This document shows, piece by piece, positions 1,619-28,126 of a stretch of DNA of 49,611 nt. Every line of letters starts with the position of its first letter. Position 1 is the stretch's first letter. A program made the position numbers and the translations under genes. This DNA is from Bacillota bacterium. Lineage in GTDB: Bacteria; Bacillota; Clostridia; Christensenellales; WQRI01. The stretch is taken from contig WQRI01000004.1 in assembly GCA_009786825.1 (NCBI GenBank), forward strand, positions 1-49,611. The letters are read 5' to 3'. The notes below the pieces were generated by a model that saw only the letters and a program-made list of their open reading frames with translations, had not been told where the DNA came from and made no database searches.

Positions 1619-1619
1619 T

Positions 1620-4100: not shown

Positions 4101-4110
4101 CTATGTACCA

Positions 4111-5241: not shown

Positions 5242-5259
5242 AATTAAAGGAACTGAACT

Positions 5260-5994: not shown

Positions 5995-6007
5995 CATAAA
6001 ATGTGGA

Positions 6008-6253
6008 ATGTTAGAAAATTTGTTTGTTGGTTGTGGTGTGAGTAAAGAACTTGAAATAGGTGCTAAGGAATTTGGAATAGATACTAGAGAGTGTGGTGTT
6101 GAGAGTAAACGGATTAAAGAGATAAGTGAGGATAGTGAAATGCAAGAAAAATTTAATAGGCTGCTAAAAATAGGGGTGTATAAAGAGTTGCATAAAAAAG
6201 GTTTGCTTAGTGATAGTCAATTGTCTATGCTGAAAATATATTCATCAAACTAA
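6008..6253 (+). CDS. Small protein with SHOCT-like C-terminus upstream of the LSR; candidate directionality factor/regulator
   Basis: C-terminal LLKIGVYKELHKKGLLSDSQL is conserved in the paralog at 25841-26143, which has the same position. Confidence 0.6.
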   Translation: MLENLFVGCGVSKELEIGAKEFGIDTRECGVESKRIKEISEDSEMQEKFNRLLKIGVYKELHKKGLLSDSQLSMLKIYSSN

Positions 6254-6317
6254 ACGAACTACTCATTTTTTCGGTTGGAATTATGCTGATTTGGGCTTAA
6301 AAAGAGACTAAGAAGAC

Positions 6318-6388
6318 TTTACAATTCTTGCAAAATATGGTATAATATAGACATACACTAAAGTATTTGCAAGGGTTGTTTAGGAGGT
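6318..6388 (+). promoter_or_regulatory. sigmaA promoter, operator-like inverted repeat and RBS of LSR1
   Basis: TTTACA 6318-6323, 17-bp spacer, TGnTATAAT 6341-6346; CTTGCAAAATA...TATTTGCAAG; AGGAGGT; conserved in element 2. Confidence 0.7.
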
Positions 6389-6393
6389 AAAAT

Positions 6394-8073: not shown

Positions 8074-8123
8074 TACGCTAAAACCACCACCCCAAAAAGA
8101 CTAAAATCACCACCCAAAAACCA

Positions 8124-8177
8124 AAATGTGCCTTTTGCTAAACGACGTAGGTACATAGTTACCGAACTTGCACATTT
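8124..8177. other. attP-like (P-P') junction between elements 1 and 2, central GG 8150-8151
   Basis: Outer inverted repeat AAATGTGC/GCACATTT symmetric about GG; left arm aligns with 28078-28103; sequence mimics cotJC codons NDVGT..ELAHLE with a 5-nt insert. Confidence 0.85.
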
Positions 8178-8270
8178 AGAAATAAATAGTTTAGATAAGA
8201 GTAAAAGCATATGAAACAAAAAAATCAAAATTCAAAATTAAAACAACCGCCAAATAAGTTTACATTGTAT

Positions 8271-8317
8271 AAAAAAGAGGCTAGCAGAAAATAAAAAATC
8301 TACGCTAGTCTTTTTTT
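8271..8317. terminator. Hairpin with A-tract and T-tract (bidirectional terminator-like); repeat family copy 1
   Basis: AAAAAAGAGGCTAGC...GCTAGTCTTTTTTT. Confidence 0.6.
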
Positions 8318-8439
8318 ATTAAGCGTAAACAAAAAACTAAAGACATATTCAAGTTTAAACGCTTTGAAATATTAGATGGTCGTGGTATAATTTATAAAGC
8401 AGAAAGAAAATAACGCTGAAAAAGAAAAGGAACAAGATT

Positions 8440-9396
8440 ATGATTTTAAGTGTAAGTAGGCGGACAGATATCCCAGCACTGTATAGTGAATGGTTTTTCG
8501 AGCGGCTTAGGGCAGGGTATTTTTTAGTGCCTAGTCCTTTTATTTTAAACAAGAAAATCGCAAGGGTAAATGTTTCACCAGTTAGAATTGAGCGCAACTT
8601 GTTAGGAGCGATTGACACCAATGCTAAGGGCGAGCAAGCAATTAGCGACAACATAGATGGGATTATGTTTTGGTCTAAAAATCCTGAGCCTATGATTAAG
8701 CGGCTTAGCGAATTGGAGAGTTTAGGTTACAGCAAGTATTGTTTTCTTTTTACGCTCAATCCGTACGGCGCGGAGATTGAGCAAAATGTGCCGCCTCTAA
8801 AAGAGCGAATTGATACTTTTAAGGAATTATCAAGTGCCGTAGGGGCAGATAGAGTTTTTTGGCGGTACGACCCTATTTTGCTCACAAGCGAATACGATGC
8901 AAGTTGGCACATGAATCAGTTCGAGATGCTAGCAACTCAACTTAACGGCTATACTAAAAATTGCAAATTTAGTTTTATTTTAGGCAAGCACCCAAAACTG
9001 CTTGCGCCTACATGTAGCCAGAAAATGCAATTAGCAAAAGCTTTTGCAGATATATCTAAAGCAAATGGCATACTGCTTGAGACTTGTGCGGTGGAAGAGG
9101 AGTTTTCAGACTTAGGCATATCGCAAAGCAAGTGCATAGACCCAGAGTTTTGGGAAGAGTATCTAAACGCAAAACGCAAGTCTAACAAACTTGATGGGCA
9201 AAGAAAAAACTGCTTGTGTATGCCAAGCGTGGATATAGGCATATACAATACTTGCAAGTTAGGTTGCATATATTGTTACGCTAATGGCTTTTACGCAAAC
9301 AGAGGCAAGCCAACCTGCCAAACAAAAACCCCACGAGGCGCCCAACTAGAGAATATTTACGAGCGCAAAATTGAACGGTCGTTTAATTATAGTTAA
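8440..9396 (+). CDS. DUF1848 family protein (Fe-S/radical-SAM-like)
   Basis: N-terminal SVSRRTDIPA.Y.EWF, FWSKNP, WRYDPI, C-terminal C.C..SVDIG.YNTC..GC.YCYAN. Confidence 0.9.
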   Translation: MILSVSRRTDIPALYSEWFFERLRAGYFLVPSPFILNKKIARVNVSPVRIERNLLGAIDTNAKGEQAISDNIDGIMFWSKNPEPMIKRLSELESLGYSKYCFLFTLNPYGAEIEQNVPPLKERIDTFKELSSAVGADRVFWRYDPILLTSEYDASWHMNQFEMLATQLNGYTKNCKFSFILGKHPKLLAPTCSQKMQLAKAFADISKANGILLETCAVEEEFSDLGISQSKCIDPEFWEEYLNAKRKSNKLDGQRKNCLCMPSVDIGIYNTCKLGCIYCYANGFYANRGKPTCQTKTPRGAQLENIYERKIERSFNYS

Positions 9397-9399
9397 AAG

Positions 9400-9449
9400 A
9401 AAAAAAGAGGTTAGCAGAATTCCAAAAATTCACGCTAGCCTCTTTTTTT
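9400..9449. terminator. Terminator hairpin; repeat family copy 2
   Basis: AAAAAAAGAGGTTAGC...GCTAGCCTCTTTTTTT. Confidence 0.7.
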
Positions 9450-9548
9450 GATGGGTTTTTCCAACATAACAAATAGTAAAAAAATGGGTTAAAATAATTT
9501 CTATAAAATACAATTGACTTTTTTATTTTGATTTGGTAAACTATAAAT

Positions 9549-10871
9549 ATGGAAAATAGCGTAATTGAATATAAATTAAAAGTAACTGAAGATATAGAAA
9601 AAACCATCGTTGCATTTTTGAACACGACAGGTGGCAAACTACTTATTGGCGTTGATAAAAATGGAGAAGTAGTAGGTCTTGAGAATGCAGACAAAGACAG
9701 TCTAGCCATTGCAGATAAAATAAGGCAAAATATAATACCTAGTGCAATCGGCTTATTTGATATAAATATTGAAGAGATGTCAAATAAGCACTATATTGTT
9801 GTTAGGGTTGCGGGAGGCATGGAAAAACCATACTATATAAAAAAATATGGGATGTCGCCAAAGGGTTGTTTTGTGCGAATAGGTTCGCAAAGCGTGCCTA
9901 TGGAGCAATCTGCAATAGATAGTCTTTACGCTAAGCGTGCTAAGAACACCTTGAAAAATATAGTAGCACCTAGACAAAACCTAACTTTTTCTATGCTTAA
10001 AATATTTTACAAAGAAAAAGGCATAGATGTAGAGGGCGAACATTTTCTTACAAACTTAGATTTAATTACTCAAGACGGCAAATATAATTATGTTGCTTAC
10101 TTAATGGCAGATAGCAATTCAAGTTCATTCAAAGTAGTTAGATATGAAGGCTTAGATAAAGTGAAAATCTTAAGTAAAAAAGATTATGGAAACACTAGCA
10201 TTCTAGTTGCCACAAAAAACATTTTAGAAAATCTAAATATTTTGAATACTACCACAGTTGAAATCACATATCCTAAGCGCATAGAAACAAGTTTGGTAGA
10301 CCCTGTTGCTCTTCGAGAGGCTGCGCTAAATGCACTTATTCATCACGACTACAGCAAAGGCACAGAGCCAGTTTTTGAGTTTTACGATGATAGGGTTGCT
10401 ATAACATCTTATGGGGGATTACCTATAGGGCTTACGCAAGAGGAGTTTTTTGCTGGGCGTTCATTGCCTAGAAACAGAGAACTTATGCGAATTTTCAAAG
10501 ATATGGAGTATGCAGAAAGTTTAGGTAGCGGAATGAACAGGATAATGAGCATTTACGGCAAAGACAGTTTTGATATCTCAGAAAACTTTTTAAGTGCGGT
10601 ATTTAAGTACGATGATAAAGTCCTTTCTCGTTTGAAAGAAAAAGCAAAAGATAAAGCCATAGAGGCAAAATCCGAGATAAACAAACTGCAAAGTGATATA
10701 TTGCAACTCATAAAAACAAACAATAATCTTTCTGCTAAGCAAATAGCAGAGACTATAGGGAATGCAACTGAAAGGACAATACAAAGAAATCTAGACACAT
10801 TGAAAGAAATAGGCTATATAGAACGTGTTGGCTCTAGAAAAACTGGTTCTTGGAAAATTGTTAGGCAATAA
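9549..10871 (+). CDS. AlbA_2 (Schlafen-like) + HATPase_c_4 + wHTH protein
   Basis: IEYK...IVAFLNTTGGKLLIGVDKNG; REAALNALIHHDY; RNRELMRIF...ESLGSG; C-terminal RNLDTLKEIGYIERVGSRKTGSW. Confidence 0.88.
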   Translation: MENSVIEYKLKVTEDIEKTIVAFLNTTGGKLLIGVDKNGEVVGLENADKDSLAIADKIRQNIIPSAIGLFDINIEEMSNKHYIVVRVAGGMEKPYYIKKYGMSPKGCFVRIGSQSVPMEQSAIDSLYAKRAKNTLKNIVAPRQNLTFSMLKIFYKEKGIDVEGEHFLTNLDLITQDGKYNYVAYLMADSNSSSFKVVRYEGLDKVKILSKKDYGNTSILVATKNILENLNILNTTTVEITYPKRIETSLVDPVALREAALNALIHHDYSKGTEPVFEFYDDRVAITSYGGLPIGLTQEEFFAGRSLPRNRELMRIFKDMEYAESLGSGMNRIMSIYGKDSFDISENFLSAVFKYDDKVLSRLKEKAKDKAIEAKSEINKLQSDILQLIKTNNNLSAKQIAETIGNATERTIQRNLDTLKEIGYIERVGSRKTGSWKIVRQ

Positions 10872-10926
10872 ATGTCGTAATAAATGTCGTAATAAATGTC
10901 GTAATAAATGTCGTAGTAAGTATCGT
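10867..10926 (+). repeat. 12-bp tandem repeat AATAAATGTCGT x4 plus one degenerate copy
   Basis: Read directly from the sequence. Confidence 0.95.
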
Positions 10927-11138
10927 AAAAATGGAACAAGACAATTAAAAAATAGCAATAGAATATTCAAACAATTAAAGGCACTTGAACAAATCAAAAT
11001 TGAAATGTCTCAAGTGCCCTTATTAATTGCGAACAACTAAAGCAATTAGGCATAACTTAGATAAACTTAAGCGAGAAGGGTTATTAATCAGGCACGGCGG
11101 TTGCTAGGGGCGGACATTGGGAAGTGGTAGAAAAGTAA
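10927..11138 (+). pseudogene. Decayed second wHTH C-terminus of an AlbA_2-family paralog
   Basis: AIRHNLDKLKREGLLIRHGG / frameshift / RGGHWEVVEK* mirrors the C-terminus of the upstream gene. Confidence 0.65.
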
Positions 11139-11208
11139 ATGCTAATTACATTATTTGGAATAAACATACACCGCTTGCTTTAAACCAAAGTCTTATGAGT
11201 GCTATTTG

Positions 11209-11357
11209 GTTTTGTTTGTTTCCCCATCGCCTTACCCTTTAAAAAGCACGCCAACAAAAAATTGTCAAGGGCGGTTTACTAAACCGTGCATTTACCCTTG
11301 ACAATTTTTTGTTGTGTGTGCTACTATACAAAAAGGCGGTGGGGAAACAAACAAAAC
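11209..11357 (+). promoter_or_regulatory. Long hairpin containing -35/-10 boxes: Frpo/sso-like single-strand promoter
   Basis: Arms 11210-11233/11333-11356 (one G-T pair) and perfect 20-bp arms 11252-11271/11295-11314; TTGACA 11298-11303 is paired, TACTAT 11322-11327 lies in a bubble. Confidence 0.7.
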
Positions 11358-11594
11358 GAAAGCGCAAGCCCACCCTACACGCCACCACCCAAAAAATGTT
11401 TCCCTTAAGCCTGAAAAAGAAAAATAAACAGGATTTTGCGTGAAAAAAAATCTGCTTTCAAAATAAGACTTTTTCCGCTAAATATGATATAATAAAAGTA
11501 AGCCGTACATATACAAGGTGTTTTAGACTGTAGGGGAAGGCACTTTTGCTGTTGATGGCGGAAGAGAGATGAATAAAATGGAGATGTGTAAAAA

Positions 11595-12956
11595 GTGAGA
11601 AAAGAAGTTTTGAGTGGGGATGAACTAAAAATTGTTGAAGCTTTTAGCGAGATTTTCCCTAATGGAAGTTTTTTAGATAGTGCAGATATAGATAGGCTAA
11701 GAGAAAATCTAAAAGAGATTCTGTCCTACACAGTTTCCAGTGACTTTCTCAAGAGCTTATTATCCAAAGTTTGTTTCAAAATTTATGATAGGTATTTTAG
11801 TATATATTCAGCAGTAAGCGATGAATTCTATCAAGTAATTGAAAGCATATTGGAGGAGCATTTTCAAAATGGATATAGCAGAATATACATATGCCAACTA
11901 TTTAATAAAATAAGAAACGAATCCGACTTATCAGAAGGCGTAAACCCAAACTTAAATGCAAACGCTTTTGGTGAAGTAATTGAGTTTTTGTCAGATGGTA
12001 AATATATAATGAATGGCAAGAGTGGTTTCTTAAGGCAATCTCGAAGCACGGAAAGCATCTTAGGAGTAGATGATGAAATTATAAATGCTGTTTTAGAGTT
12101 GCTTAAAGAGGGACAGTGGTTGACAGTAGAAGAAATACATAGTAAACTGTATTTTTATCCACCTGCAAGAATAAATGAAATTTTTGATAAGTCTGCTAAG
12201 GTTAGAGCAAAGTCAAAAGAGTGGCAAGAGATAATAGAAAAAACCAACTCAATTAGACCTGAATACATTCATGTTGAAACGGTTTATCTTACAGAAAGTG
12301 ATAAGACAAAAACTAGCAACACAATAGATGCGATGAGAGGATGCGATTTTTTCAAGGAAGAAAAAGATGAGTTGCTAGCAGTAGCAGGAAAGCTTTTAGA
12401 AAAGGCAAAAGAAGCAATAAGCAGTCAAGACGCTATCAAGGCAGATAAAGCATCAAACACGGCATCTACGATTATTGACTTAGCACAAACACTTATGCCA
12501 AAAGATGAAATATTGGCGAGCGAGTTGCTTGCTAGACTAATGCAGAGCGAGCCACAAGTTGTGAAAGGTATAATAGATGACTTTGGAGTAGAGGGTGTTG
12601 AAAAAGCACTTGCTTACAATTTTGATAGAGTATTACTAAATACTAACTCGCAGAAAGCGAGCACTTACAAGTCCAGAAAAAGCAAGGCTAGTAAAGAAGG
12701 CTGGGCTTCCAACTTTGTGAAATGGCTACAGAGTGTTGAAGGCAAATCCGAGAATACGGTAAACTCATATGCTAGTGCCGTGCTTAAAGTATTAAAAAAC
12801 GAAAGCCTGACCTATGAAGGGCTTGATGAGCGTTTGCTTGCGCGGATTATTGCTGATTACGACAGAGGCGGAGTAAACCAACATATAGGCGATGAAGGCA
12901 ACAGAACAGTAATTAATGGCTTAAAAGCCTTGCAAAGGTTTAGAGCTAGCATATAA
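11595..12956 (+). CDS. Hypothetical protein upstream of BREX; C-terminus resembles an integrase SAM-like helical domain
   Basis: 453-aa ORF; FVKWLQSVEGKSENTVNSYASAV motif near the C-terminus. Confidence 0.6.
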   Translation: MRKEVLSGDELKIVEAFSEIFPNGSFLDSADIDRLRENLKEILSYTVSSDFLKSLLSKVCFKIYDRYFSIYSAVSDEFYQVIESILEEHFQNGYSRIYICQLFNKIRNESDLSEGVNPNLNANAFGEVIEFLSDGKYIMNGKSGFLRQSRSTESILGVDDEIINAVLELLKEGQWLTVEEIHSKLYFYPPARINEIFDKSAKVRAKSKEWQEIIEKTNSIRPEYIHVETVYLTESDKTKTSNTIDAMRGCDFFKEEKDELLAVAGKLLEKAKEAISSQDAIKADKASNTASTIIDLAQTLMPKDEILASELLARLMQSEPQVVKGIIDDFGVEGVEKALAYNFDRVLLNTNSQKASTYKSRKSKASKEGWASNFVKWLQSVEGKSENTVNSYASAVLKVLKNESLTYEGLDERLLARIIADYDRGGVNQHIGDEGNRTVINGLKALQRFRASI

Positions 12957-13032
12957 GTTTTATTATAAAGTGGAATAAAACTATAAGATGTGGCATTATA
13001 TGTGCTAAAAACATACACAAGGAGTTACATAA

Positions 13033-15414
13033 ATGTACTCATACGAATGGGATAAAGAAACAGGTGGGTTTGTTTTAAATACCAAACCGCAAGGCTTCTC
13101 TAAAGAGCCACGACCCGTGTGGTATCATGAATTAGACCTATTAGGCTTTGACAAATATTGGGTGTATCCAAAATGCAAAGAGACACCCATTATGTGGGCG
13201 GAGGCAACAAGCTACATATATAGAGGCAGAAAAATTGCTAAGATATCTGGCGGAAGCACTTACACAGCACCGAAGTTGGAGATAATAGAGCACTACCCAG
13301 AAGGCAAAAAAAGCGATGCCGAGTTTAAAGGTACAAAAGAAGATGCTTTTAAGTTTGATGTTAACGAAACAAACTCGCTTCAGTTAATAGATATTGAGCG
13401 ATTTGTAGGAAAAAACGCAAACTTAATGGATGCTTTAGCCAACAAAACAATAAAAGACCTTTACAATACTTACAAAAAGTTTCAACCGCAAATTGATGTA
13501 TTTCAAGTGGCTTTCTCGGGCGGTAAAGATAGCATTGTGCTTTTAGATTTGGTTAAAAGAGCAATACCCGAAAAAGACTTTATTGTTGTGTTCGCCGATA
13601 CGCAAATGGAATTTCCCGATACATACGACCTAGTTGACAAAGTGGAGGCACAACTAAAAACAGAAGGGATAACCTTTTTAAGAGCAAAAAGCCATTTAGA
13701 TATAATGTATACTTGGCAAGAGTTTGGACCACCGTCAAGCACTTTGAGGTGGTGTTGCACAGTGCATAAAACTGCACCACAATTGGCAAGAATAAGAGAG
13801 CACGAAGGAAAAAGCGATTTAATAAAGATGTCATTCATTGGCGTTAGGGCTGATGAAAGCTTAGCAAGAAGCGAGTATGACGCATTAGCGGAAGGCAGAA
13901 AAATCAGAAAACAATTTGCATATAGACCAATTTTAGAGTGGAGTAGTGCGGAGGTTTGGATGTATAAGATTAAAAGAAACCTAGAAATCAATGAGGCTTA
14001 TAAGAAGGGAAGCAGTCGTGCTGGGTGTATAGTATGCCCGATGTCAAAAGGACACAGCGAGTTTATTAGAAAAGCACTTTATCCTAATCAAAGTCAATCA
14101 TTCTACGAGTCAATTTACAACTCATACGGGATAACAAAGGACAGTGAGCAAGAACGATATGCGGAAAAAGGTATATGGAGATACCGTGCAAGCGGAAAAT
14201 CTCTTGCTAACTGCCATAGTCTTTTTTCAAACAGCACAGGCGAGGCGCAAATAGTTTTACACCTAGGAGTACCTAAGGTCAGTTGGAAGGAGTGGATGAA
14301 AACTTTGGGTGGTTTAACACAGATAAGCGAGCACACCTTTGAATTAAAAATAGAAGGAAAAAAAATTGATTTTAAGGTGAAAGAAAAGCAAGACGGACTA
14401 GAGATTATTTATAGCTCGAAAATAGCAAAAGAAGCATCAAGCATAAATAAGTTGTTCAAACAAGTGTTTATCAAATCAACGCACTGTATAATGTGTAAAG
14501 CTTGCGAAGCAAACTGCCCTACAGGGAATATAGATTCTACTGGCGGAAATTTAAAGATAGAGGGATGCACACAGTGTTTAATGTGCCACACAGTTGCTGA
14601 TGGGTGTTTAGTTTATCAGTCTAGGAAAGTTCCAAAAGGAGATGGAAGAATGTCTAAAAGTATAAGTGCTTATTCAACGCACGCGCCAAAAAAAGATTGG
14701 GTATTTGATTTTTTAAGATTACAAGAAAAATATTTCCAACAAGCAGGACTCTCTTCGAGAAAGCAAGATGAGTTTAAGAAGTTTTTAAGGCACGCAGGCT
14801 TATTGGAAAAAGACAGCATTAGTGGTTTTTCACAATCGCTTTCAATGGCTAATGGAGAGTCTACTGTCTTAGGTTTGATATTATCCAATCTTGCTTATAG
14901 TACCCAAATAGGCTGGTGGATTAAGAATGTAAGAGGGTTTAATAGCAGAGATGATTTAAGAGGTTTGTTATTAGGCTTTGACCAAACTGAGGGAAGTATA
15001 AAAAATGCGTTGCAAGAGTTCCCGTTGCTGTTAGATATCTTCGAACCTGTTGGCTTAGGACGTGTAGAGCGTAAAGTAAGCAAAAGCGGTAAAGAGGGGC
15101 AAGTAGAAGGTTTTACTAGACTTAGCTGGGAAAATCCTGAGCCTGCTGTGATATTGTATTCGCTCTACAAAATGGCAGAGAAAAACGGTGGACTGTATGA
15201 GTATAGACTAGAAAGGTTAATGGACTTTGATATAGATGGTGAGGGTATTTCGCCCGCGCAAATTTTTGGTTTAAGTGCAGAAGCGCTCTCGCAGGTACTA
15301 GTAGAGATAAGTGTAAGGTATCCAGAGTTTGCCGAGTATAGCCAAACGCACGGACTTAAAATACTAAAGCTAAAAAAAGAAAAGACAAGTAAAGAAATTT
15401 TGGAGTTGCTTTGA
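13033..15414 (+). CDS. brxP: BREX type 4 BrxP: PAPS-reductase family + 4Fe-4S + DUF4007-like domain
   Basis: VAFSGGKDS, RWCCTVHK, GVRADES, RAGCIVCP, CIMCKACEANCP ferredoxin motif; first gene of a brxC-pglZ-brxL operon. Confidence 0.85.
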   Translation: MYSYEWDKETGGFVLNTKPQGFSKEPRPVWYHELDLLGFDKYWVYPKCKETPIMWAEATSYIYRGRKIAKISGGSTYTAPKLEIIEHYPEGKKSDAEFKGTKEDAFKFDVNETNSLQLIDIERFVGKNANLMDALANKTIKDLYNTYKKFQPQIDVFQVAFSGGKDSIVLLDLVKRAIPEKDFIVVFADTQMEFPDTYDLVDKVEAQLKTEGITFLRAKSHLDIMYTWQEFGPPSSTLRWCCTVHKTAPQLARIREHEGKSDLIKMSFIGVRADESLARSEYDALAEGRKIRKQFAYRPILEWSSAEVWMYKIKRNLEINEAYKKGSSRAGCIVCPMSKGHSEFIRKALYPNQSQSFYESIYNSYGITKDSEQERYAEKGIWRYRASGKSLANCHSLFSNSTGEAQIVLHLGVPKVSWKEWMKTLGGLTQISEHTFELKIEGKKIDFKVKEKQDGLEIIYSSKIAKEASSINKLFKQVFIKSTHCIMCKACEANCPTGNIDSTGGNLKIEGCTQCLMCHTVADGCLVYQSRKVPKGDGRMSKSISAYSTHAPKKDWVFDFLRLQEKYFQQAGLSSRKQDEFKKFLRHAGLLEKDSISGFSQSLSMANGESTVLGLILSNLAYSTQIGWWIKNVRGFNSRDDLRGLLLGFDQTEGSIKNALQEFPLLLDIFEPVGLGRVERKVSKSGKEGQVEGFTRLSWENPEPAVILYSLYKMAEKNGGLYEYRLERLMDFDIDGEGISPAQIFGLSAEALSQVLVEISVRYPEFAEYSQTHGLKILKLKKEKTSKEILELL

Positions 15415-15437
15415 TTTGAAACAAGGCACAAAAAGTA

Positions 15438-19619: not shown

Positions 19620-19668
19620 CCTAACAACCGCTGGCATAAGTTGTTATACCTTAAAGCAAGAGAAAAAT

Positions 19669-21765
19669 ATGGTAAGTAAAAGTTATAAAAGCCTAGAGCA
19701 AGCAACAAAGATTATAAGTGGAGCTTCAAACAAAACTCCATTTATAGTCAATGTAAACAGCAGCGAGCAGTACAAGGAAGTGTACTCAAAGTTTAAACAC
19801 CTTGAGACTATTAGGCTTTCTTCTTATATAGTTGCCGACAACCCGCACCCTTGTTTGCAAAACTTGAATAGTGCAGTTAGTAATAGTGCAAAGCCTGCTC
19901 TAGTATTGGGGTTTACACAATACCTTGCGTTTATTGGAAAAGAAAAGCCAATAGAAGACTTTTTGATAAAAACGATAAATGAAACCAACAAGATTATAAT
20001 ACTTACTTTTAATCTAGAAAACTTGCTTGTGAAGTTAGCAAAAGACCCACGCATCGAAAAGAACATCTTATTTATAGAAAGTAGTCGGGCAGTAGAGCAT
20101 CCTAAGATAACAATTTCACAAGGTGCAAAAGACTCACTAAGAATTTTTTTTGAAACCTTAGAAACTGAGGGTTTGCATATTGGGCGAGTGAATGATGTAG
20201 ACGTGAAATCTTTCAAAGACGGCATATGGTCTGTACGGGCAGAATCAAATTATGATATACTTATTAATTCAGGCATATTTGCGGGAGTTTCTGTTGAAGA
20301 AGAGTTTGGAACTAATGAGCAGTGGGAGTTTTTAAACGGGCTACTGAGTAATAAGCATGGCACAAGCACTCTACAAAGTGCTTATCTTTCACTTTTTGTC
20401 AAACAGACTATAGAGAGCATACTTAAAAATTACGATAAACTTGATAGTGACCAAAAGTGGTTTCTGTGGCTGTGTAGTAGGCACGCTACTGAAAACAAAT
20501 ACTTGTCTTTTGCTTTAGAAAAAACAAAATGTAGCACTGACTTTTTACCTAGTATATATGAAGCAATCTTAGATGTGAACTTCAAGGACAAACGGTTCGC
20601 GGGCTTCTACAAGGAAAGAAAAGAGTTGCTTTGCGCTCTTATTAAGAGTAAAGACCACATAAAGCTTTTGAAGAGTTACATAGAGCAAGTAGTCGCAATG
20701 AGTTCGGCAGATAAGGCATACTACTTAACAGACTTAACGCCAACAGAGAGGGAAACGCTTATAAGAACAATAGTGGAAAACAGATATAGCCCTACAGACT
20801 TGCGTAAAATTTTGTCTCATGCTGATAGCAAGCTTTCTGCATATATGAGTTCGTGGACAAGCGATAATGAGCAAATCGATAATTATGTAAGCGCTTACTT
20901 TGACGAGGGCGGATACAAGTACCACAAACTGACGAACCAAGTAACAAACAACTTCTTACAGACTGTAGACTCGAACGCAAGAGAAAGGCAGTATAATAAA
21001 TTGCTTGACACTACAGCACAGGTTTTTTCATCAATAAACAAAGACAAGTCTAAGGTTTATTTTATAGACTCACTAGGATTTGAGTTTGTTGGATATATTG
21101 TAAACAGAACTAGCGAGTTGGGGATAGATTCAAAAGTTACACCAGCAAGGTGCAACTTGCCATCCAGTACAGAGTTCAACAAGCAGTTTTTGAGTGATTA
21201 CAAAGTGGGTGAAAAGAATTATGTAGAGAAGGAATACTTAGACAAACTTAAGCACGGCAAAAACAAGGATGCAACTTTTAGTAAAACAGACTTGCCGATA
21301 CACTTACTGTCCGAACTAGATATAATTGACAAAATAATTGAAAATATAGCAAGAGATTTAGCTAGTTCGAGTTTTGATAAAGTCTTAATTGTTACAGACC
21401 ACGGTTCATCAAGATTGTTTGTGCTTGCTAGAAATAGTGGTGTTTCAAGTCTGGTTGTACAAGCTTCTGGTGGAAGCGGTAGATTTTTGACGCATGATAC
21501 ATATAAAATTTTAAACATAAATGAGTCTCATAAGGCAAGTATAACAATCGAAGACGAGCATGCGATAATAGCGAGCTATAACTATTTTAACAAGCAGTCC
21601 CTAGGAGTTGAAGCCCACGGTGGGGCTACGGTTGAAGAGGTTGTTGTTCCTGTGATTGAGTTTACACTACAAAAAGCAGTCTCATTGCATACACAAATAA
21701 AGAAAGAAGACAAGCAGCCAAAAGGAGAGAAGTCGGCTGCTAAGATAGTGGATCTAGGTATTTAA
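19669..21765 (+). CDS. pglZ: BREX-4 PglZ phosphatase-fold protein
   Basis: FIDSLG, LPSSTEFN, LDKLKH, VTDHGSSR, HGGATVEEVVVP. Confidence 0.9.
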   Translation: MVSKSYKSLEQATKIISGASNKTPFIVNVNSSEQYKEVYSKFKHLETIRLSSYIVADNPHPCLQNLNSAVSNSAKPALVLGFTQYLAFIGKEKPIEDFLIKTINETNKIIILTFNLENLLVKLAKDPRIEKNILFIESSRAVEHPKITISQGAKDSLRIFFETLETEGLHIGRVNDVDVKSFKDGIWSVRAESNYDILINSGIFAGVSVEEEFGTNEQWEFLNGLLSNKHGTSTLQSAYLSLFVKQTIESILKNYDKLDSDQKWFLWLCSRHATENKYLSFALEKTKCSTDFLPSIYEAILDVNFKDKRFAGFYKERKELLCALIKSKDHIKLLKSYIEQVVAMSSADKAYYLTDLTPTERETLIRTIVENRYSPTDLRKILSHADSKLSAYMSSWTSDNEQIDNYVSAYFDEGGYKYHKLTNQVTNNFLQTVDSNARERQYNKLLDTTAQVFSSINKDKSKVYFIDSLGFEFVGYIVNRTSELGIDSKVTPARCNLPSSTEFNKQFLSDYKVGEKNYVEKEYLDKLKHGKNKDATFSKTDLPIHLLSELDIIDKIIENIARDLASSSFDKVLIVTDHGSSRLFVLARNSGVSSLVVQASGGSGRFLTHDTYKILNINESHKASITIEDEHAIIASYNYFNKQSLGVEAHGGATVEEVVVPVIEFTLQKAVSLHTQIKKEDKQPKGEKSAAKIVDLGI

Positions 21766-21792
21766 AAGTATTATAATAGGAGTTAGAGCGAC

Positions 21793-23265
21793 ATGGGCGA
21801 AGCAATAATTACACTTGAAAAAAAACTGAAGGATAGTTTTCCAGAAATGGTAGTTTATAAAGACCTTAAAAAGTCAAACTTTTTTAATTCTTTAACACTA
21901 CCTAGCTTTATGCGAGACTGGCTAATAAAACGTTTTCAAGCGGAAGACGGGTTTTTGGGTGAAGAGCAAATTGAAAATATACGCAACTTTATTGATACAT
22001 ATATTCCTAGAACAAAACAAGACTGGAATAAAATCAAGAGCAGAATAATTAACGAATCAGAGAGGGTTAAGATTTTAGCCAAGATAAGTGTAGATATAGA
22101 TATAAAAACAGGGTGGCGTTTTTTTACCCTTTCTGACTTCGGGCTAGGTAAGGCAGACACTGGTATCCCAAATAATGTATGGTATGATTTTTCCGATGAC
22201 TTTTTAGCGGCAAACGAGATTTGGGGTATAGTTGAATTGGCGTATTTGCCAAAAGACTATTCGGAAGATAAAAAAGGCAAGATAATAATTACAGACTTTA
22301 AAAAGTTTTGTCCATATCAAATAGACCTCAACTTTTACAAAGAGGCACGGAAAAACTTCACGATAGATGAGTGGTTTGATGTTTTGTTGGGTGCAATAGA
22401 TTACAACCCAAGCGGGTATAAGGAAAGAGTTCATAAGCGCACAATGCTTTCTCGATTACTGCCATTTGTTGAAAAGCGATTAAACTTAGTTGAGTTAGCC
22501 CCGAAAGGAACAGGAAAATCGTATGTGTTTGAAAGACTATCAAGGTTTGGCTATTTGGTAGGTGGGGGTAAACTCTCACGAGCTAAGTTGTTTTATGATA
22601 GGTCAAAAAAATCAAGGGGATTAATATTTTCTAATGACTTTGTAGCGTTAGATGAAATTCAAACCATATCAGCAAGTGATCCAAATGATATTAGAAGTGC
22701 GTTAAAAACATATATGGAAAGTGGGCAGTACAGCGGCGATGACTTTAGAGGTGTCGCAGATGCAGGAATTATACTATTAGGAAATATTGAATCAAGAAAT
22801 ATGGACGAGTACACGGATTTATTTTTTGAACTACCAAACCTATTTAAAGAAAGCGCGCTGATTGACCGCTTCCACGGATTTATAATGGGGTGGAATATTC
22901 CTAGAATGAACGATGATTTAAAGATGAATGGATTTGCCCTTAACTCAGAATACTTTACTTCAATAATGAATTTACTCAGAGATGATATAACTTATAGGCA
23001 AATTGTGGATGAAATAATCGAAGTGCCTAAGCACGCAGACACAAGGGATACAGAGGCGATTAAAAGAACAGCAACAGCATTTTTGAAGTTATTTTTCCCA
23101 AATGTTCAGTCTCCTAGCGGTATAGTTGCACACGAATTTGAAGAATATTGTTTGCGCCCCGCGTCAAAAATGCGTGAGATTATCAAATACCAAATGGGGA
23201 AGTTAGATGATGAATTTAAAGGGAAAGATATTCCCAACTTGTTATTAAAGGAAAAATTTAGATAG
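21793..23265 (+). CDS. brxL: BrxL-like AAA+ protein without the Lon protease domain
   Basis: RLLPFVE, ELAPKGTGKS, VALDEIQ, SALIDRFHG..GW, RDTEAIKR. Confidence 0.9.
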   Translation: MGEAIITLEKKLKDSFPEMVVYKDLKKSNFFNSLTLPSFMRDWLIKRFQAEDGFLGEEQIENIRNFIDTYIPRTKQDWNKIKSRIINESERVKILAKISVDIDIKTGWRFFTLSDFGLGKADTGIPNNVWYDFSDDFLAANEIWGIVELAYLPKDYSEDKKGKIIITDFKKFCPYQIDLNFYKEARKNFTIDEWFDVLLGAIDYNPSGYKERVHKRTMLSRLLPFVEKRLNLVELAPKGTGKSYVFERLSRFGYLVGGGKLSRAKLFYDRSKKSRGLIFSNDFVALDEIQTISASDPNDIRSALKTYMESGQYSGDDFRGVADAGIILLGNIESRNMDEYTDLFFELPNLFKESALIDRFHGFIMGWNIPRMNDDLKMNGFALNSEYFTSIMNLLRDDITYRQIVDEIIEVPKHADTRDTEAIKRTATAFLKLFFPNVQSPSGIVAHEFEEYCLRPASKMREIIKYQMGKLDDEFKGKDIPNLLLKEKFR

Positions 23266-23275
23266 AGAGGAGAAA

Positions 23276-23482
23276 ATGTCTAAGCCGATTGTTAAATGTT
23301 TTTCGTGCAGGATGCACCCAATTTCTAAAGATGAGTTGTCAATATGTAAAAAAATGTTAGGCAGAAAAACAGAGAATTATTTTTGCTTAACTTGCTTGGC
23401 AGATTTTTTACACGTTGCAGAAGAAGACATTTTAGATAAGATTGAGCAGTTTAAAGGAGAAGGGTGTGTTTTGTTCAAGTAA
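23276..23482 (+). CDS. Small Cys-rich (CxxC...CxxC...GCxLF) protein closing the BREX operon
   Basis: GAGGAG RBS, 10 bp after the brxL stop, six Cys in 68 aa. Confidence 0.75.
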   Translation: MSKPIVKCFSCRMHPISKDELSICKKMLGRKTENYFCLTCLADFLHVAEEDILDKIEQFKGEGCVLFK

Positions 23483-23559
23483 TTTTTATGGTTATGAATT
23501 AGGTCATAAAAAAGTAGATGGCGAAGGTTAGCAGCAAAACACAAAAAATACAAACAACA

Positions 23560-23596
23560 AAAAAAGAAAGGTTTAAATAAATGACCTTTCTTTTTT
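23560..23596 (+). terminator. Terminator after the BREX operon
   Basis: AAAAAAGAAAGGT / ACCTTTCTTTTTT inverted repeat. Confidence 0.7.
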
Positions 23597-23628
23597 GTTT
23601 TATCATTTGTATGACATAGCAGTTAGCC

Positions 23629-24162
23629 AGTAGAATATAGTAGGGGGCTATTTTTTCTATTAAAAAGTTTGTTGAAATGGCACTTATGTTGTCAAAAATT
23701 CCGTAAGTTTTTATGTTGCTGGACTATTAGAAAGGGGGGAGTTTTTTTATTAAGCAAAAGTTATTTGAAAAACTTTTCAAAAAGGGGGTTGACTTTTGGC
23801 GTTTTCGTGGCTTTATTATAGAGGGGTATTTTTTTCGCAGGGGATAAGCGACAAAAATTATTAAAAAAGTTTTGAAAAAAACCTAACCAAACAGCGTTTT
23901 TCGTGGCTATATATAGAGGGGTTTTTAAAAAATAGTTGTTGGTGCTTACTTATATTAGGCTTTATTGCGGTAGTAGAATATAGTAGGGGGATAAAAAAAG
24001 ATTAGCGAATTGTTAGAAATTTTGTAAGGTTGGTTGTGTGAGAGGGCAGTTTCAAGGTAAGCAGTAGTAAGGGGATTTTGTCATATTAGCAGTATGCAAA
24101 TAAAAACTTTTTGTAAAAGTGGTTGCCAAAGTGCCATTCTCGTGGCTTTTATATAGAGGGGT
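23629..24162 (+). repeat. Non-coding array of dispersed direct repeats ending in G-runs
   Basis: TCGTGGCT(W)nTATAGAGGGGT at 23805, 23901, 24140; AGTAGAATATAGTAGGGGG at 23629 and 23972. Confidence 0.85.
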
Positions 24163-24300
24163 TTTTCTAACCACTTTTAAAATCTAGGTTAGCAGGAGGG
24201 AGAAATGAAAACAAAAGGTTTACATAGTGCAAACAATAATAGCGCATTTAAAGCGGAAACAAGCGACTATACAAACGAAAAAACCTGCTAGGCGGATAAA

Positions 24301-24394
24301 GCGGAAGCCACGCATATAGCGGTTTAGCGGTGCGTGGCTTCCGCCGCCGTAGGCGGCGGAATTGGCTAATGTTTTTATTATTACCATTAGCCAA
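24301..24394 (+). other. Rolling-circle origin 2: three hairpins, the last with a TATTATTAC loop
   Basis: 14-bp stem 24301-24314/24331-24344; stem 24340-24348/24352-24360; 10-bp stem 24362-24371/24385-24394 with the nonamer at 24376-24384. Confidence 0.88.
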
Positions 24395-24583
24395 CATAGT
24401 AACAACGAAACGAAACCGAGCGTTTCACGGAGTGTTTTACCATTACATTTTAAAGTTATTATGGCTACATTAATCAGACTTTAATGGTTTGATAATTAAC
24501 ACATAATCAGAATTACTTTTTGCTAAATGCAGAAAAGTAAGTGATAACATGAAAAAAGAAAAGAGAAAGGAGGATTTGAAAAT

Positions 24584-25743
24584 TTGGAAACAAATGAAAC
24601 ACGACAAGACTATGGTCTTGAAAACACACAAAGCAATGACTTAGAAAACGACTATGGCTTGAGTGCCTTAAAGGAAGAGGCAGAGCCAAAAGTGGACACA
24701 ATGTATAGGAATTGGATGTTTACAATTAACAACCCAGAGCAAACGGAAGCGGAGATTTATACATACTTGTCTAACCTAGACCATGTGAAATACTTTATAT
24801 TCGCAAAAGAAAAAGAGAGCACCGAACATTATCAAGGTTACATAGAATTTTCGCAACCTGTAAGATTTAGCCGAATGCAAAGAGATTTTTCTAAGCCTCA
24901 CATTCTGCCAGGCGGACACCTTGAGAGGCGCAAGGGTAAACGCTCACAAGCAAGAGACTACATTCTCAAACTAGGCAAGTATGCCGACAAGGCTCACACA
25001 AGAATTGGCGAAATTCAAGAGTACGGCGAATACATAGAGGATGGTCAACGAACCGACCTTGAAGACTTGGTGCATATGGTTAAAGAAAACCTAAGTGATT
25101 ACGAGATAGCAGAGCAAATGCCAAACGCCTTTGTTAGATATGGCAAGTTATTGATATGGTTCGCCGCGCTTACATTGAAGAAGAGTTTGGCAAAAAGCCA
25201 CGCCTTGACTTACAAGTAACCTACATTTATGGCGGAACAGGCAAAGGCAAAACACGCTATGTTATGGACAAATATGGCTATCACAATGTGTTCAGAGTAA
25301 TTGACTACGACAGAGGCACATTTGATGACTACAAAACCCACAAGGTCATTGTAATGGAAGAGTTTCGCTCATCCCTTAAAATCACCGACATGCTAAACTA
25401 CCTAGACATTTACCCAACACCACTAAAGGCACGCTTTAAAAACAAAATTGCATGCTACAACAAAGTTTACATTCTATCCAACATACCGCTTGAGAGCCAG
25501 TACAAAAACATTCAAACAGAAGAGCCAGAAACTTGGAAAGCCTTCAAACGCAGAATACATAGAATTATAAACTGGGACAAGACACTTGCCGTGTCGGGCG
25601 GTGTCTTAACAGAGCAGTCTAAAATCACTCAAGCCACATTAATCAGCGGTAAGGAATGCCAAAGTATGAAACCAATAATAACCGCAAGCGGAAATATCCT
25701 TATCCCACTGTCCCCAACAGAAGAGGATGAACTGCCGTTTTAA
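24584..25743 (+). pseudogene. rep: Second CRESS-type Rep, split by a 1-nt deletion near 25147-25151
   Basis: HUH motifs in 24584-25219 and SF3 motifs in 25156-25743, collinear with Rep1; AAAGGAGG RBS + TTG. Confidence 0.85.
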
Positions 25744-25786
25744 ACCGTGTGTTCCACGATTTGTCTAAGACTTGTGGAGGCTAATG

Positions 25787-25828
25787 GCATAACCGCAAGT
25801 GGACAAACAAGTTTTGTTTTGAGTTGAC
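25787..25828 (+). pseudogene. 3' remnant of the deleted methyltransferase
   Basis: GGCATAACCGCAAGTGGACAAACAAGTTTTGTTTTGAGTTGA matches the end of the MTase at 5953-5994 (GITASGQTSFVLS*). Confidence 0.85.
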
Positions 25829-25840
25829 ATAAAATGTGGA

Positions 25841-26143
25841 ATGTTAGAAAATTTGTTGATTGGTTGTGCTGGGAGTAAAGAACTTGAAATAGGTGCTAAA
25901 GAATTTCAAGTGAAGGCTGAGGAATTTGAAATATGTGATAGGGCGTGTGGTGTTGAGAGTAAAGAAATTAAAGTAAGTAAACAGATTAAAGAGATAAGTG
26001 AGGATAGTGAAATGCAAGAAAAATTTAATAGACTGCTAAAAATAGGGGTGTATAAAGAGTTACATAAAAAAGGTTTGCTTAGTGACAGTCAATTGTCGGC
26101 GTTGGTTCATATGCAGAATAAACCTTTGAGAATATATTCGTAA
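25841..26143 (+). CDS. Paralog of 6008-6253 (SHOCT-like, candidate directionality factor)
   Basis: Near-identical N- and C-terminal blocks and same position. Confidence 0.65.
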   Translation: MLENLLIGCAGSKELEIGAKEFQVKAEEFEICDRACGVESKEIKVSKQIKEISEDSEMQEKFNRLLKIGVYKELHKKGLLSDSQLSALVHMQNKPLRIYS

Positions 26144-26213
26144 AACTAAATAAACTACTCTTTTTTCGGTTTGGAATTGTGGTGATTTAGGCTTAAAAAG
26201 AGACTAAGAACAC

Positions 26214-26284
26214 TTTACAATTCTTGCAAAATGTGGTATAATATATTATACACTAAAAGTATTTGCAAGGGTTGTTTAGGAGGT
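26214..26284 (+). promoter_or_regulatory. sigmaA promoter and RBS of LSR2
   Basis: TTTACA 26214-26219, 17-bp spacer, TATAAT 26237-26242, AGGAGGT. Confidence 0.7.
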
Positions 26285-26289
26285 AAAAT

Positions 26290-27965
26290 ATGAAACACTA
26301 AGCAAAATAATAGTGCCTCACGTGCAAACAATATACGCACACAGAGGACTAAATGCACATCACCCAAGCAAAATTATAGTCTCACCTTATTGCCGTGTTT
26401 CTACTGACAAAAACGACCAAGCAAACTCTTATGCAAGTCAAATTAGTTATTTCTCTGAATATATAAATAGGCAAGAAAACTGGGAACTGGGTCAAGTCTA
26501 CGCCGATGAAGGACTAAGTGGAACTAGTGTAAAAAAGCGCAAGCAGTTTAATAGAATGATAGAAGATGCCTTGAATGGCAAAATTAATCTTATTATAACT
26601 AAAGAGGTATCCCGCTTTGCAAGGAATACAGTTGACACACTAACTTATACACGAAAACTTAAAGAGCGCGGCGTTGGGGTATTTTTTGTAAGTGATAACA
26701 TTAATACTATGGACGCCGATGGCGAATTGCGACTTACCATAATGGCAAGTTTGGCACAAGAGGAAAGCCGAAAGACAAGTGAAAGGGTAAAGTGGGGACA
26801 GCGGCGGCAAATGGAAAAAGGTGTTGTATTTGGCAGAGACTTACTAGGCTACACAGTTAAAGGTGGTAAACTCTTTGTAAATGAGCAAGAAGCACTTATA
26901 ATACAGCAAATCTACAATAAGTATACCATAGAGGGCAAGGGAACTTGGGTCATAGCAAGAGAGTTATACGAGGCAGGGATTAAGTCAAAGCGTGTTAAAG
27001 AGTTTTCTAACACAATGATTTTGAAAGTGCTTAAAAATGAAAAGTATGTAGGCGACTTATTGCAAAAGAAAACTTTCACTCCAGATTATCTAACACAAAG
27101 TAAAAAGGTAAACAAAGGGCAGGAAGACAAAATTTACATAAGAGACAACCACGAACCTATAATTGAAAGGTGGCTTTGGGATAAGACACAACAAGAGTTA
27201 GAGAGGCGAAGCCCACCGCTTGAGCAAAAGCAAAGATACTCAAATAGATATTGGTGTAGCGGTAAGGTTAGATGCGAATGCGGACAACGATATGTTAGCA
27301 GAACAAAAGCACTACTAGGTGGAGTTATGCATAAAGCGTGGCGGTGCTTGTCGGCGGCTAATCACGGTACTGAAAAGTTGGGCGTGTTCGGCGAGCAGGT
27401 AGGTTGCAATAGCGCAAGTATAAATGACAAAAGCCTTTTAGCCTTGATGAGTGAGAGTATAAACTTTGTTCAGCAAAACAAGCAGTCTATAACAAAAGAG
27501 ATTTTGCGTGAGATAGAAAGTGTGCAAGAGAATGCAAAACCAGTTGACACAACGCACCATAAGCAAAGGCTTGAAGAGTTGCAAAACAAAAAGACTAAAG
27601 CAATTGACTTAATGCTTGATGGCATAATCACTAAACAAGACTTAAAAATTCAAGCACAGGGGTACGACAAAGAGATAGCGCACATTGCCACGCAACTTGA
27701 AAAGGTAGAGGCTCAAAACAACAAGGCGCGCCAGCAAACACTTGATTTAAGCGCATATGAAAGCCAGATAGAAAATATAATGCAGTTTGGTCAAGAAAAC
27801 GATTTGCTTTACAGAGAACTGCTAGACAAAATAGTTATACATAAAGATAAGTCTATAACTATCTACCTAAACAACTTAGCCAAAGGCATTAAAATTGAGT
27901 ACATAACAACAGGCAAAAAAGACACTTTCAAAGTGGCTATCCAAAGTTTAGAAATGGTTTCTTAA
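26290..27965 (+). CDS. Large serine recombinase 2; 1-nt deletion just after the RBS-linked ATG (open frame from GTG 26313)
   Basis: Same motifs as LSR1; ATG AAA CAC TAA versus ATG AAA CAA CTA in LSR1. Confidence 0.9.
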
Positions 27966-28077
27966 AGCAAAAACAATAAAAAATCAACTAAAATTCTTAG
28001 CATATACCACTAATAAAAACAACTAAAAACCAAAATCAGCAACTTAAAATATGCTTGAAAACTTATCCAAAAACCCT

Positions 28078-28126
28078 AAATGCGCAATTTCGGCAACGAT
28101 GTAGGGACGGAGGAGTTGGCGCACTT
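28078..28126. other. attR (P-B') site, central GG 28104-28105
   Basis: Left arm AAATGCGC.. aligns with 8124-8149; the right-arm motif GCGCACTT is 5 bp closer to the centre than at 8170. Confidence 0.85.

Follow-up and report, generated by a model that had tools for sequence, protein, structure and literature searches.

A probable site-specifically integrated, non-autonomous CRESS-type Rep element carrying a BREX type 4 operon, in tandem with a sister element inside the spore-coat gene cotJC

Introduction

The spore-coat gene cotJC of a Bacillota bacterium (GenBank assembly GCA_009786825.1) is split by two related insertions standing in tandem, and the second of them raises the question that we address here: what kind of mobile element shares a rolling-circle origin, a Rep gene, and a large serine recombinase (LSR) with a phage-like neighbor, lacks virion genes, and carries a BREX defense operon? 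The window that we analyzed is the whole of contig WQRI01000004.1 (49,611 nucleotides [nt]; contig C4 of an assembly of 103 contigs and 1.7 Mb that is 86% complete). The element under study, element 2, occupies 19,954 bp at positions 8152-28105 of the plus strand, and element 1, a sister of about 30 kb, lies directly upstream of it. A sequence-only reading had described element 2 as a capsid-less, satellite-like relative of an inovirus-like phage in which virion genes were replaced by a defense island, and every part that it listed for element 2 was found in place, the genes by Pfam, PADLOC, and NCBIfam searches. We consider it probable that element 2 is a discrete, site-specifically integrated, non-autonomous element of the CRESS-type Rep family within cotJC. 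Below, loci are cited by L numbers and contigs of the assembly by C numbers.

Results

Boundaries and attachment sites. Element 2 is bounded by two cognate attachment arms, P2' and P2, and by a common core, GTAGG, found at 8147-8151 and 28101-28105. The sequence was read at both sites, and since the crossover lies within GTAGG, the ends proposed earlier, 8152 and 28105, are exact. On contig C6, the attL site has the structure B-core-P1' (...CTAAACGATGTAGG followed by TACATAGTTGGACAAAAGGCACATTTT). The junction between the two elements (8125-8180, plus strand) consists of the P1 arm, the core, and the P2' arm (AAAATGTGCCTTTTGCTAAACGACGTAGG followed by TACATAGTTACCGAACTTGCACATTT), while attR (28078-28105, plus strand) consists of the P2 arm and the core and leads directly into cotJC coding sequence (AAATGCGCAATTTCGGCAACGATGTAGG followed by GACGGAGG). 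To the left of the middle junction, the arm pairs in inverted orientation with the P1' arm of attL, and the arm to the right of that junction pairs in the same way with the P2 arm at 28078-28100. Thus, P1 and P1' form one inverted pair and P2 and P2' another, so that each element has its own palindromic attP; because element 2 was inserted beside a related element at GTAGG, the middle site is a P1-core-P2' hybrid. Element 2 therefore stands as a separate member of its family, as had been proposed, with cognate att arms of its own, the family origin, Rep, and LSR, and a defense cargo without a mobility gene.

The two parts of cotJC lie on either side of the pair of elements. The N-terminal 63 codons are on contig C6, preceded by cotJA and cotJB, and the C-terminal two thirds begin at 28080 in the window. 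When the halves are joined at the core, they give an in-frame product (...ATLNDVG followed by TEELAH), and this restoration needs the loss of both elements. The host genome encodes Spo0A (main gene on contig C18), SipL, CotJA, and CotJB; a shorter second open reading frame (ORF) with a Spo0A_C domain (262 amino acids [aa]; L117:11894-12682, contig C25) lies close to a prophage on C25. A tRNA scan gave no matches, and neither did an Rfam scan of window positions 1-30000 at E values up to 0.1.

We considered whether the tandem junction could be an assembly artifact and rejected this because a Logan contig (record 1) bridges the 8125-8180 junction, spanning 7600-8679 with 0 differences. One public sequencing run containing this DNA was found, available as contigs only and with no RNA run listed. 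It may be the source sample, and therefore it provides independent assembly, not independent biology.

Backbone shared by the two elements. The proposal that both elements are built on a common backbone of origin, Rep, methyltransferase remnant, small ORF, LSR, and att was borne out by blastn and by reads of the sites. Positions 5953-7513 aligned with 25786-27414 (83.8% identity over 1633 nt), 4243-5242 with 24707-25744 (70.4%), and 7899-8052 with 27800-27953 (70.8%). Along the right end, identity was 70% in Rep, 84 to 100% from the end of the methyltransferase gene to a point 1.1 kb into the LSR gene, and 70% again at the LSR 3' end.

The recombinase of element 2, LSR2 (26313-27965, plus strand; Pfam Resolvase, E = 4.5e-33, and Recombinase, E = 7.4e-21), is full length relative to LSR1 of element 1 (6394-8073). 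The two proteins are 72% identical, with near-identical catalytic and recombinase domains and a diverged C-terminal third; the divergence of this DNA-binding third matches the differing outer att arms. Upstream of LSR2, a conserved ORF of 100 aa (25841-26143, plus strand) is 85% identical to its counterpart at 6008-6253 in element 1, and its motif YKELHK..LSD.QL is retained in L084, as it is ahead of related LSRs in L083, L084, and L166 to L168. It belongs to no Pfam, PHROG, or NCBIfam family, and its position and conservation make it a candidate recombination directionality factor or regulator. Directly before it, at 25786-25824 (plus strand), are the last 13 codons of an N6/N4 DNA methyltransferase gene (100% identical), which in element 1 follows Rep as an intact gene (5260-5994; Pfam). 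The Rep-methyltransferase pair is present also in L018 and L012.

The left end contributes a further backbone gene. The protein with AlbA_2/Schlafen, HATPase_c_4, and winged-helix domains (9549-10871, plus strand; Pfam) had been counted among the cargo. However, element 1 carries an AlbA_2 gene at the same end (L005:5520-6839, minus strand; the proteins are 47% identical), and for this reason we assign the gene to the family backbone. Its stop codon is overlapped by a tandem repeat of four 12-nt copies (10867-10931, plus strand). A short stretch beyond it (11030-11139, plus strand) corresponds to the 3' end of an AlbA_2 gene of the element 1 type (94.4% nt identity over 108 nt to C6:5519-5625; protein residues 405-439), and we read this remnant as a recombination scar that forms the left landmark of the cargo slot.

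Origin, promoter-like boxes, and Rep. A rolling-circle origin is predicted at 24300-24398 (plus strand). It comprises three hairpins, of which the third has a 10-bp stem and holds the nonamer TATTATTAC in its loop at 24376-24384, giving the NANTATTAC-nonamer stem-loop next to rep that characterizes CRESS-type replicons. Element 1 has the same three-hairpin plan at 4010-4100, and the origin is located 30 to 200 nt upstream of Rep in both elements. The window has two copies of the nonamer, at 4085 and 24376, each in the loop of the third hairpin just upstream of Rep. This count alone is not above chance, as 25 of 100 shuffles also reached two copies; the origin call is instead based on the position, structure, and conservation of the nonamer. 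DNA folds of the two origins had z scores of -5.0 and -7.1 (-33.8 kcal/mol and z = -7.05 for element 2), the stems differ between the elements yet stay paired through compensatory changes, and the loop of the first hairpin, AGCGGTTTAGCG, is common to both. Among related loci with enough upstream DNA, 48 of 68 had TAnTATTAC in a hairpin loop no more than 700 nt upstream of Rep.

Promoter-like boxes of the family lie ahead of the origin (23617-24166, plus strand), with CGTGGCT-N(5-9)-TAGAGGGG at 23806, 23902, and 24141 and GTAGAATATAGTAGGGGG at 23630 and 23973. The 1.7-Mb assembly has exactly four copies of the first of these patterns, three in element 2 and one in element 1, where it is found at C41:13557, past a sigma-like gene (C41:13065-13532) and ahead of the morphogenesis genes. 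Additionally, an imperfect palindrome of 167 nt (11200-11366, no strand assigned) with TTGACA boxes in both arms is present upstream of the cargo gene ORF453; it has no counterpart in element 1, being confined to element 2, and is probably regulatory.

The Rep gene that had been placed at 24584-25743 is there, but it is split by a real frameshift that the sequence-only reading missed. Compared with Rep1 of element 1 (4111-5241; Viral_Rep plus SF3 helicase), Rep2 lacks 1 nt near 25150, between the nuclease and helicase domains, and is left as two overlapping ORFs. The N-terminal HUH nuclease part (24584-25219, plus strand; Pfam Viral_Rep, E = 3.5e-16) has the motifs FTINN, HYQG, and YILK and ends in an out-of-frame tail, while the C-terminal SF3 helicase part (25156-25743, plus strand, in the -1 frame) has the Walker A motif GGTGKGKT, the Walker B motif VIVMEEF, and motif C ILSN. 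All catalytic motifs are intact, but they are divided between two frames by this single lesion. A Logan contig (record 4) covering 23898-25824 has the same frameshift, with 0 differences and 0 gaps, and the N-terminal fragment is on record from three contigs. A programmed -1 frameshift was considered and rejected as unlikely because the second frame is still homologous to Rep1 upstream of the only A-run, which is itself preceded by a stop.

Cargo of element 2. All 12 ORFs of element 2 are on the plus strand, and the largest part of its cargo is a BREX type 4 operon (13033-23265, plus strand) with the genes for BrxP, BrxC, PglZ, and BrxL in that order. BrxP (13033-15414, plus strand) matched its PADLOC profile with an E value of 1.7e-212 (residues 1-792 against profile positions 1-774 of 779) and has a Pfam PAPS_reduct domain; BrxC (15438-19619, plus strand) and BrxL (21793-23265, plus strand) matched theirs with E values of 1.9e-146 and 7.3e-203, and PglZ (19669-21765, plus strand) matched both PADLOC (E = 1.6e-48) and the NCBIfam family BREX_PglZ_4 (292.6 bits against a cutoff of 140). 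The system is complete, with all four proteins near full length relative to the PADLOC profiles. Its gene order was identical in all five other genomes examined, and 30 of the 400 further genomes sampled within the phylum had relatives of BrxP, with identities of 42% or lower.

Directly after BrxL is a cysteine-rich, zinc-ribbon-like ORF of 68 aa (23276-23482, plus strand), missed by the sequence-only reading. Homologues with 44 to 51% identity occupy the same position in two of five other BREX-4 loci (L110:15455-15637 and L112:4696-4881), and no Pfam or NCBIfam family matched it. This context makes it a likely BREX-4 accessory gene and possibly a fifth gene of the system.

The gene preceding BrxP, ORF453 (453 aa; 11595-12956, plus strand), is an orphan whose C-terminal 80 residues form an integrase-SAM-like DNA-binding domain. 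It had no Pfam, PADLOC, PHROG, or NCBIfam family; a search of 5.8 billion proteins returned only ORF453 itself, the ESM Atlas returned only unnamed clusters (0.89-0.90), and a representative library gave 38 distant matches. Elsewhere, the C-terminal domain is fused to TIR, GmrSD, or DUF4145, and a HARE-HTH domain was present in 2 of 10 relatives of the N-terminal part. The gene was found upstream of BrxP in none of five other BREX-4 loci, and its AlphaFold2 (AF2) model was poor (predicted local distance difference test score, pLDDT, of 43.4).

At the left end, a DUF1848 protein (8440-9396, plus strand; Pfam PF08902, E = 1.9e-83; PADLOC RTasDUF1848, E = 5.6e-40) with a radical-SAM-like cysteine cluster is a further piece of variable cargo. 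A truncated paralogue (L088, C8:16972-17550; residues 1-180) with 85.6% nt and 87% aa identity adjoins a truncated C-5 DNA methylase gene elsewhere in the genome.

The BREX block showed no mobility genes of its own, the presence of which had been named as evidence against a cargo role: no recombinase or transposase was found inside the cargo of element 2 in the ORF list or by Pfam. The lack of morphogenesis genes was confirmed as well. In tblastn, 11 element 1 proteins gave nothing below an E value of 0.4 against element 2 except at the AlbA_2 gene, and neither Pfam nor PHROG detected pI/Zot or coat genes in 8152-28105. However, the claim that a defense island replaced the virion genes did not survive comparison of the two maps. 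The slot that runs from the AlbA_2 3' end to the promoter-like box contains about 19 kb in element 1, made up of a tail-like block and regulators, and ORF453, BREX-4, and the 68-aa ORF in element 2. From the box to the origin, element 1 has a 5.5-kb morphogenesis module and element 2 just two more boxes. BREX thus sits elsewhere than the position of the virion module. Since the box-to-origin stretch of element 2 has no other content, the virion module was deleted, and the defense genes occupy a separate slot.

Element 1 and its phage-like module. Element 1 extends over about 30.4 kb on three contigs: C6:1-7160 (L005), C41 (L087), and window positions 1-8151. C6, in reverse orientation, overlaps C41 by 71 exact bases, C41 overlaps C4 by 75, and no other contig fits either end. 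From the left, the AlbA_2 gene is followed by a block encoding a tail-tube protein, fiber repeats, and three paralogous pairs of 729-aa and collagen-like proteins. After this tail-like block come a LexA-like repressor, a helix-turn-helix protein, a sigma-70 region-4 protein, small ORFs, and a protein ending in a membrane anchor; these are succeeded by a 447-aa protein with a signal peptide and a C-terminal anchor, a 747-aa protein with five membrane helices and a P-loop, and the origin and Rep. In the window part of the element, two ORFs (275-1618 and 1735-3978) have no family. The presence of a tail-like block beside a filamentous-phage-like module may mean that element 1 is a composite of two mobile elements.

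By context, the module of element 1 looks inovirus-like, in line with the sequence-only reading. A module of Big_2, 447-like, and 747-like proteins occurs twice more in the genome (L116, C7:26000-42391; L117, C25:1-20000), followed there by an inovirus G2P-type Rep (PF23343) and not by a CRESS-type one. L009 and L163 encode, after a 447-like gene and before Rep, a protein with a Pfam Zot match, while L010 has genes for a sigma factor, a single-stranded DNA-binding protein, a Flg_new protein, 447-like and 747-like proteins, Rep, and LSR in an insertion that splits a UPF0047 gene. Direct tests for a Zot identity of the 747-aa protein gave weak results. Pfam and the follow-up search gave no Zot match, no pairwise similarity to the Zot-like relative extended beyond the P-loop, and hhalign against the Zot-like protein of L009 reached 61% probability over 33 columns only. 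The protein had 0 matches among PDB sequences, its profile had one weak match (E = 0.014), and an AF2 model built from five sequences was poor (pLDDT, 46.0). Overall, the module of element 1 reads as filamentous-phage-like, with replication modules apparently swapped among relatives, and the context speaks more strongly for this than the direct tests do.

Relatives and cargo variation. Among the candidates scored, 506 Rep relatives were found at E values of 0.001 or lower. Species-representative genomes held 77 Rep loci, nearly all titled Bacillota, with a few metagenome-assembled genomes (MAGs) of the Acholeplasma/Haloplasma type and one MAG titled Gammaproteobacteria; IMG/VR held 78, of which 58 were on contigs of 10 kb or less. 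A search of genome contigs with a Rep1 pattern gave 64 pattern matches and 0 relatives. Element 2 had been called large, at about 20 kb, for a CRESS-Rep replicon, and this is correct for the Rep family because the 17 circular contigs (those with terminal repeats) that carry a related Rep measure 2.1 to 7.7 kb, with none larger. Within the 77 genome loci, homologues of the 447-aa and 747-aa proteins were found twice each, a Rep-adjacent methyltransferase twice, and BREX genes not at all.

Other insertions at cotJC carry other genes. A 9.8-kb element between cotJC halves (L085:1544-11340) has a related LSR and no Rep, and its cargo includes GNAT acetyltransferases, SAM methyltransferases, a transglutaminase-like protein, an RsgA-like GTPase, and an RNHCP protein; past the shortened C-terminal part of cotJC in L085 is a second mobile element (ArdA, DUF3801, and another LSR). 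In L084, the LSR abuts the N-terminal part of cotJC in the other orientation at the same codon. L166 to L168 have Rep (36 to 37% identity), the small ORF, and LSR (54 to 57%) beside a cotJC fragment, preceded by a Cro/C1-type repressor and a weak FtsK-like ORF, a small plasmid-like set without virion genes. In two of these IMG/VR loci, a siphovirus-type lysis and tail module lies just past the LSR and cotJC fragment (L168:8538-16260 and L167:7607-13525), echoing the tail-like block of element 1. Since relatives with the same LSR family and the same cotJC target, split at the same codon, carry different genes, cargo varies, although the sample is small; one integration and replication backbone can apparently carry a virion module, a plasmid-like set, housekeeping-type enzymes, or BREX-4.

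The claim that the backbone is a hotspot for defense cargo is based on few cases. PADLOC, run on the 134 ORFs of the 10 nearest Rep loci, gave some match in five loci, but a contiguous multigene defense cluster next to a Rep-methyltransferase pair was present in only 1 of the 10, L018. In that locus (L018:9899-20436), the genes after the Rep-methyltransferase pair encode DUF488/DuOB (PDC-M45), a DUF1848 fragment, a split Eco47II endonuclease, an Eco57I-type methylase, a GHKL ATPase, and a PtuB-like HNH protein, and the LSR gene adjoining its Rep is itself split into two ORFs.

Outside both elements, a Bro-N domain protein is encoded at 30065-30904, about 1.5 kb past cotJC, and RhuM, a DNA alkylation repair protein, T5orf172, and DUF4238 are encoded at 38859-43172, which may be a small defense or mobile island. 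Copies of RhuM flank the C7 and C25 prophages too.

Discussion

We propose that LSR2 inserted element 2 at the core GTAGG inside cotJC, next to element 1. The resident BREX-4 system may mark host DNA by phosphorothioation, an activity described for other BREX-4 systems (PMC12914056), and in this way protect the lysogen. Excision would be carried out by the LSR, probably helped by the small ORF upstream of it, and cotJC would be restored once both elements are gone, as happens with other intervening elements of sporulation genes. Any rolling-circle replication of element 2 would need the Rep of its neighbor, acting in trans on the conserved origin.

Several points weigh against this explanation. 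The contigs of the one run showed neither an excised circle nor a restored attB nor a single-element form, and contigs drop rare forms; backward-going contig joints that could be taken for circles arose from cross-mapping of the paralogues LSR1 and LSR2. The substrate of the LSR would be the hybrid P1-core-P2' site and not a standard attL, and the directionality factor is a candidate by position and conservation. The frameshift in Rep2 could mean plain decay of element 2, and the action of Rep1 on the origin of element 2 is suggested solely by the common 12-nt loop. Finally, the joining of C6, C41, and C4 depends on exact overlaps of 71 and 75 nt that lie at repeats.

The view closest to the sequence-only reading is that element 2 is a true satellite of a filamentous phage, comparable to RS1: once it is excised, the Rep of a helper would fire its origin, a sigma-like factor of the helper would switch on its boxes, and a 20-kb single strand would be packed into a long filament supplied by element 1 or one of the related prophages of C7 and C25. 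Much in the layout fits this picture. Element 2 is without morphogenesis genes yet keeps the origin, Rep, LSR, and promoter-like box, an RS1-like combination for which there is a precedent (PMC3545932). It stands in tandem with a candidate helper, one of three in the genome; three of the four boxes in the assembly belong to it, with the fourth ahead of the morphogenesis genes of the helper; a sigma-like gene is present in element 1 and absent from element 2; and the origin loop AGCGGTTTAGCG is shared. Size is no hard bar to packaging, as the length of the Ff phage filament is not fixed. However, the contigs showed an even depth of about 31 over element 2 and the flanking DNA and no circle joint, and no long hairpin of the packaging type was common to the two elements, so that the satellite behavior claimed earlier found no direct support. 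The broken Rep2, the absence of any circular related-Rep contig above 7.7 kb, and the indirect nature of the pI/Zot identification in the helper also count against it. Satellite transfer is possible, but we judge a true satellite of this kind to be unlikely. A broader version that joins several of these ideas would make element 2 the first defense-carrying satellite of a Gram-positive filamentous phage, one that shed its sigma factor, repressor, virion genes, and working Rep and kept three late-promoter boxes of the helper and a helper-compatible origin. Prophage induction would then switch on the LSR operon, replicate element 2 in trans, and export the BREX-4 genes as a 20-kb single strand in an extra-long filament, and selection would preserve the near-identity of the LSR catalytic domains so that mixed tetramers could remove the whole array in a single step, restoring cotJC in the course of sporulation. 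We regard this combination as quite unlikely.

Element 2 might instead be an immobile relic, a chromosomal defense island that has lost virion and regulatory genes, Rep, and methyltransferase and still holds an LSR gene. The frameshift in Rep2, the reduction of the methyltransferase gene to 13 codons and of the AlbA_2 gene of the element 1 type to a scar, and the single-copy depth would all follow from decay. Against this, both att arms remain intact, as do LSR2, the small ORF, and the hairpins of the origin. Rep2 has one lesion and all of its catalytic motifs, and the catalytic half of the LSR gene is 94 to 100% identical to that of LSR1 at the nt level, which points to recent exchange; we therefore consider a dead relic improbable. 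Transfer by a conjugative element in the cell, with element 2 as an integrative mobilizable element (IME), Rep as its relaxase, and the origin as its oriT, has some basis in the description of streptococcal IMEs with putative relaxases of the PF02407 type (PMC5704250) and in the Rep-small ORF-LSR backbone of L166 to L168, which includes a weak FtsK-like gene and no virion genes. The damage to Rep2 speaks against it here too, and Pfam and PADLOC found no coupling protein or other transfer gene in a search confined to element 2. This is the least credible of the explanations and a very improbable one.

The best reading, in our view, remains that of an integrated, non-autonomous element akin to the integrated replicons of the pCRESS type and to the intervening elements of sporulation genes, and resembling RS1 beside CTXphi. 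RS1 of Vibrio cholerae, a capsid-less relative of a filamentous prophage that lies in tandem with CTXphi at the same site (PMC3545932), appears to be the closest functional parallel. As described there, RS1 likewise has replication, integration, and regulation genes and no capsid genes and shares one chromosomal site with a prophage. However, RS1 is about 3 kb long, uses the host XerCD at dif, has a working RstA, and was shown to be packaged, whereas element 2, known from sequence alone, is 20 kb long and has its own serine recombinase in a sporulation gene, a frameshifted CRESS-type Rep, and BREX-4. The integrated plasmids with CRESS-like Rep in the parts of Kazlauskas et al. (2019, PMC6668415) compared here include none with known structural genes. 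Element 2 has in common with them a Rep with HUH and SF3 helicase domains (divided here between two frames), site-specific integration with att repeats, the lack of known viral structural genes, and Clostridia among the hosts. In contrast, the sister elements here carry a filamentous-phage-like module, which is not reported in those parts of the article, and the defense cargo and the tandem cotJC site appear to be new, although the supplements fell outside the comparison and may hold a prior description.

cotJC has been cited as a target of intervening elements (10.1101/2021.11.22.469490, citing Abe 2013), and the account of gin indicates that intervening elements of sporulation genes need not be phages (PMC5595907). 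As in the descriptions of skin, SPbeta, vfbin, and gin, an element bounded by an LSR splits a mother-cell sporulation gene here, excision would restore the frame, and, as in gin, the cargo is not that of a phage. Unlike them, the cotJC locus, which we know only as assembled DNA, holds two different tandem elements and a rolling-circle module, so that repair of cotJC in one step needs the attL of one element and the attR of the other. P4-like satellites and P2-like phages are described as carrying variable defense genes in a fixed slot (Rousset et al. 2022, PMC9122126). What they share with element 2 is that conserved genes of a phage-related mobile element flank this slot of variable defense cargo, while the element type, host phylum, and integrase differ, and the hotspot claim made here is based on few relatives.

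Overall, this locus ties together bacterial CRESS-type Rep replicons, filamentous phages of Bacillota, and intervening elements of sporulation genes, which are usually treated apart. If the neighbor does mobilize element 2, defense-carrying satellites would be extended to filamentous phages and to Bacillota; if it does not, the locus would still be a clear case of a defense system becoming fixed in a developmental gene.

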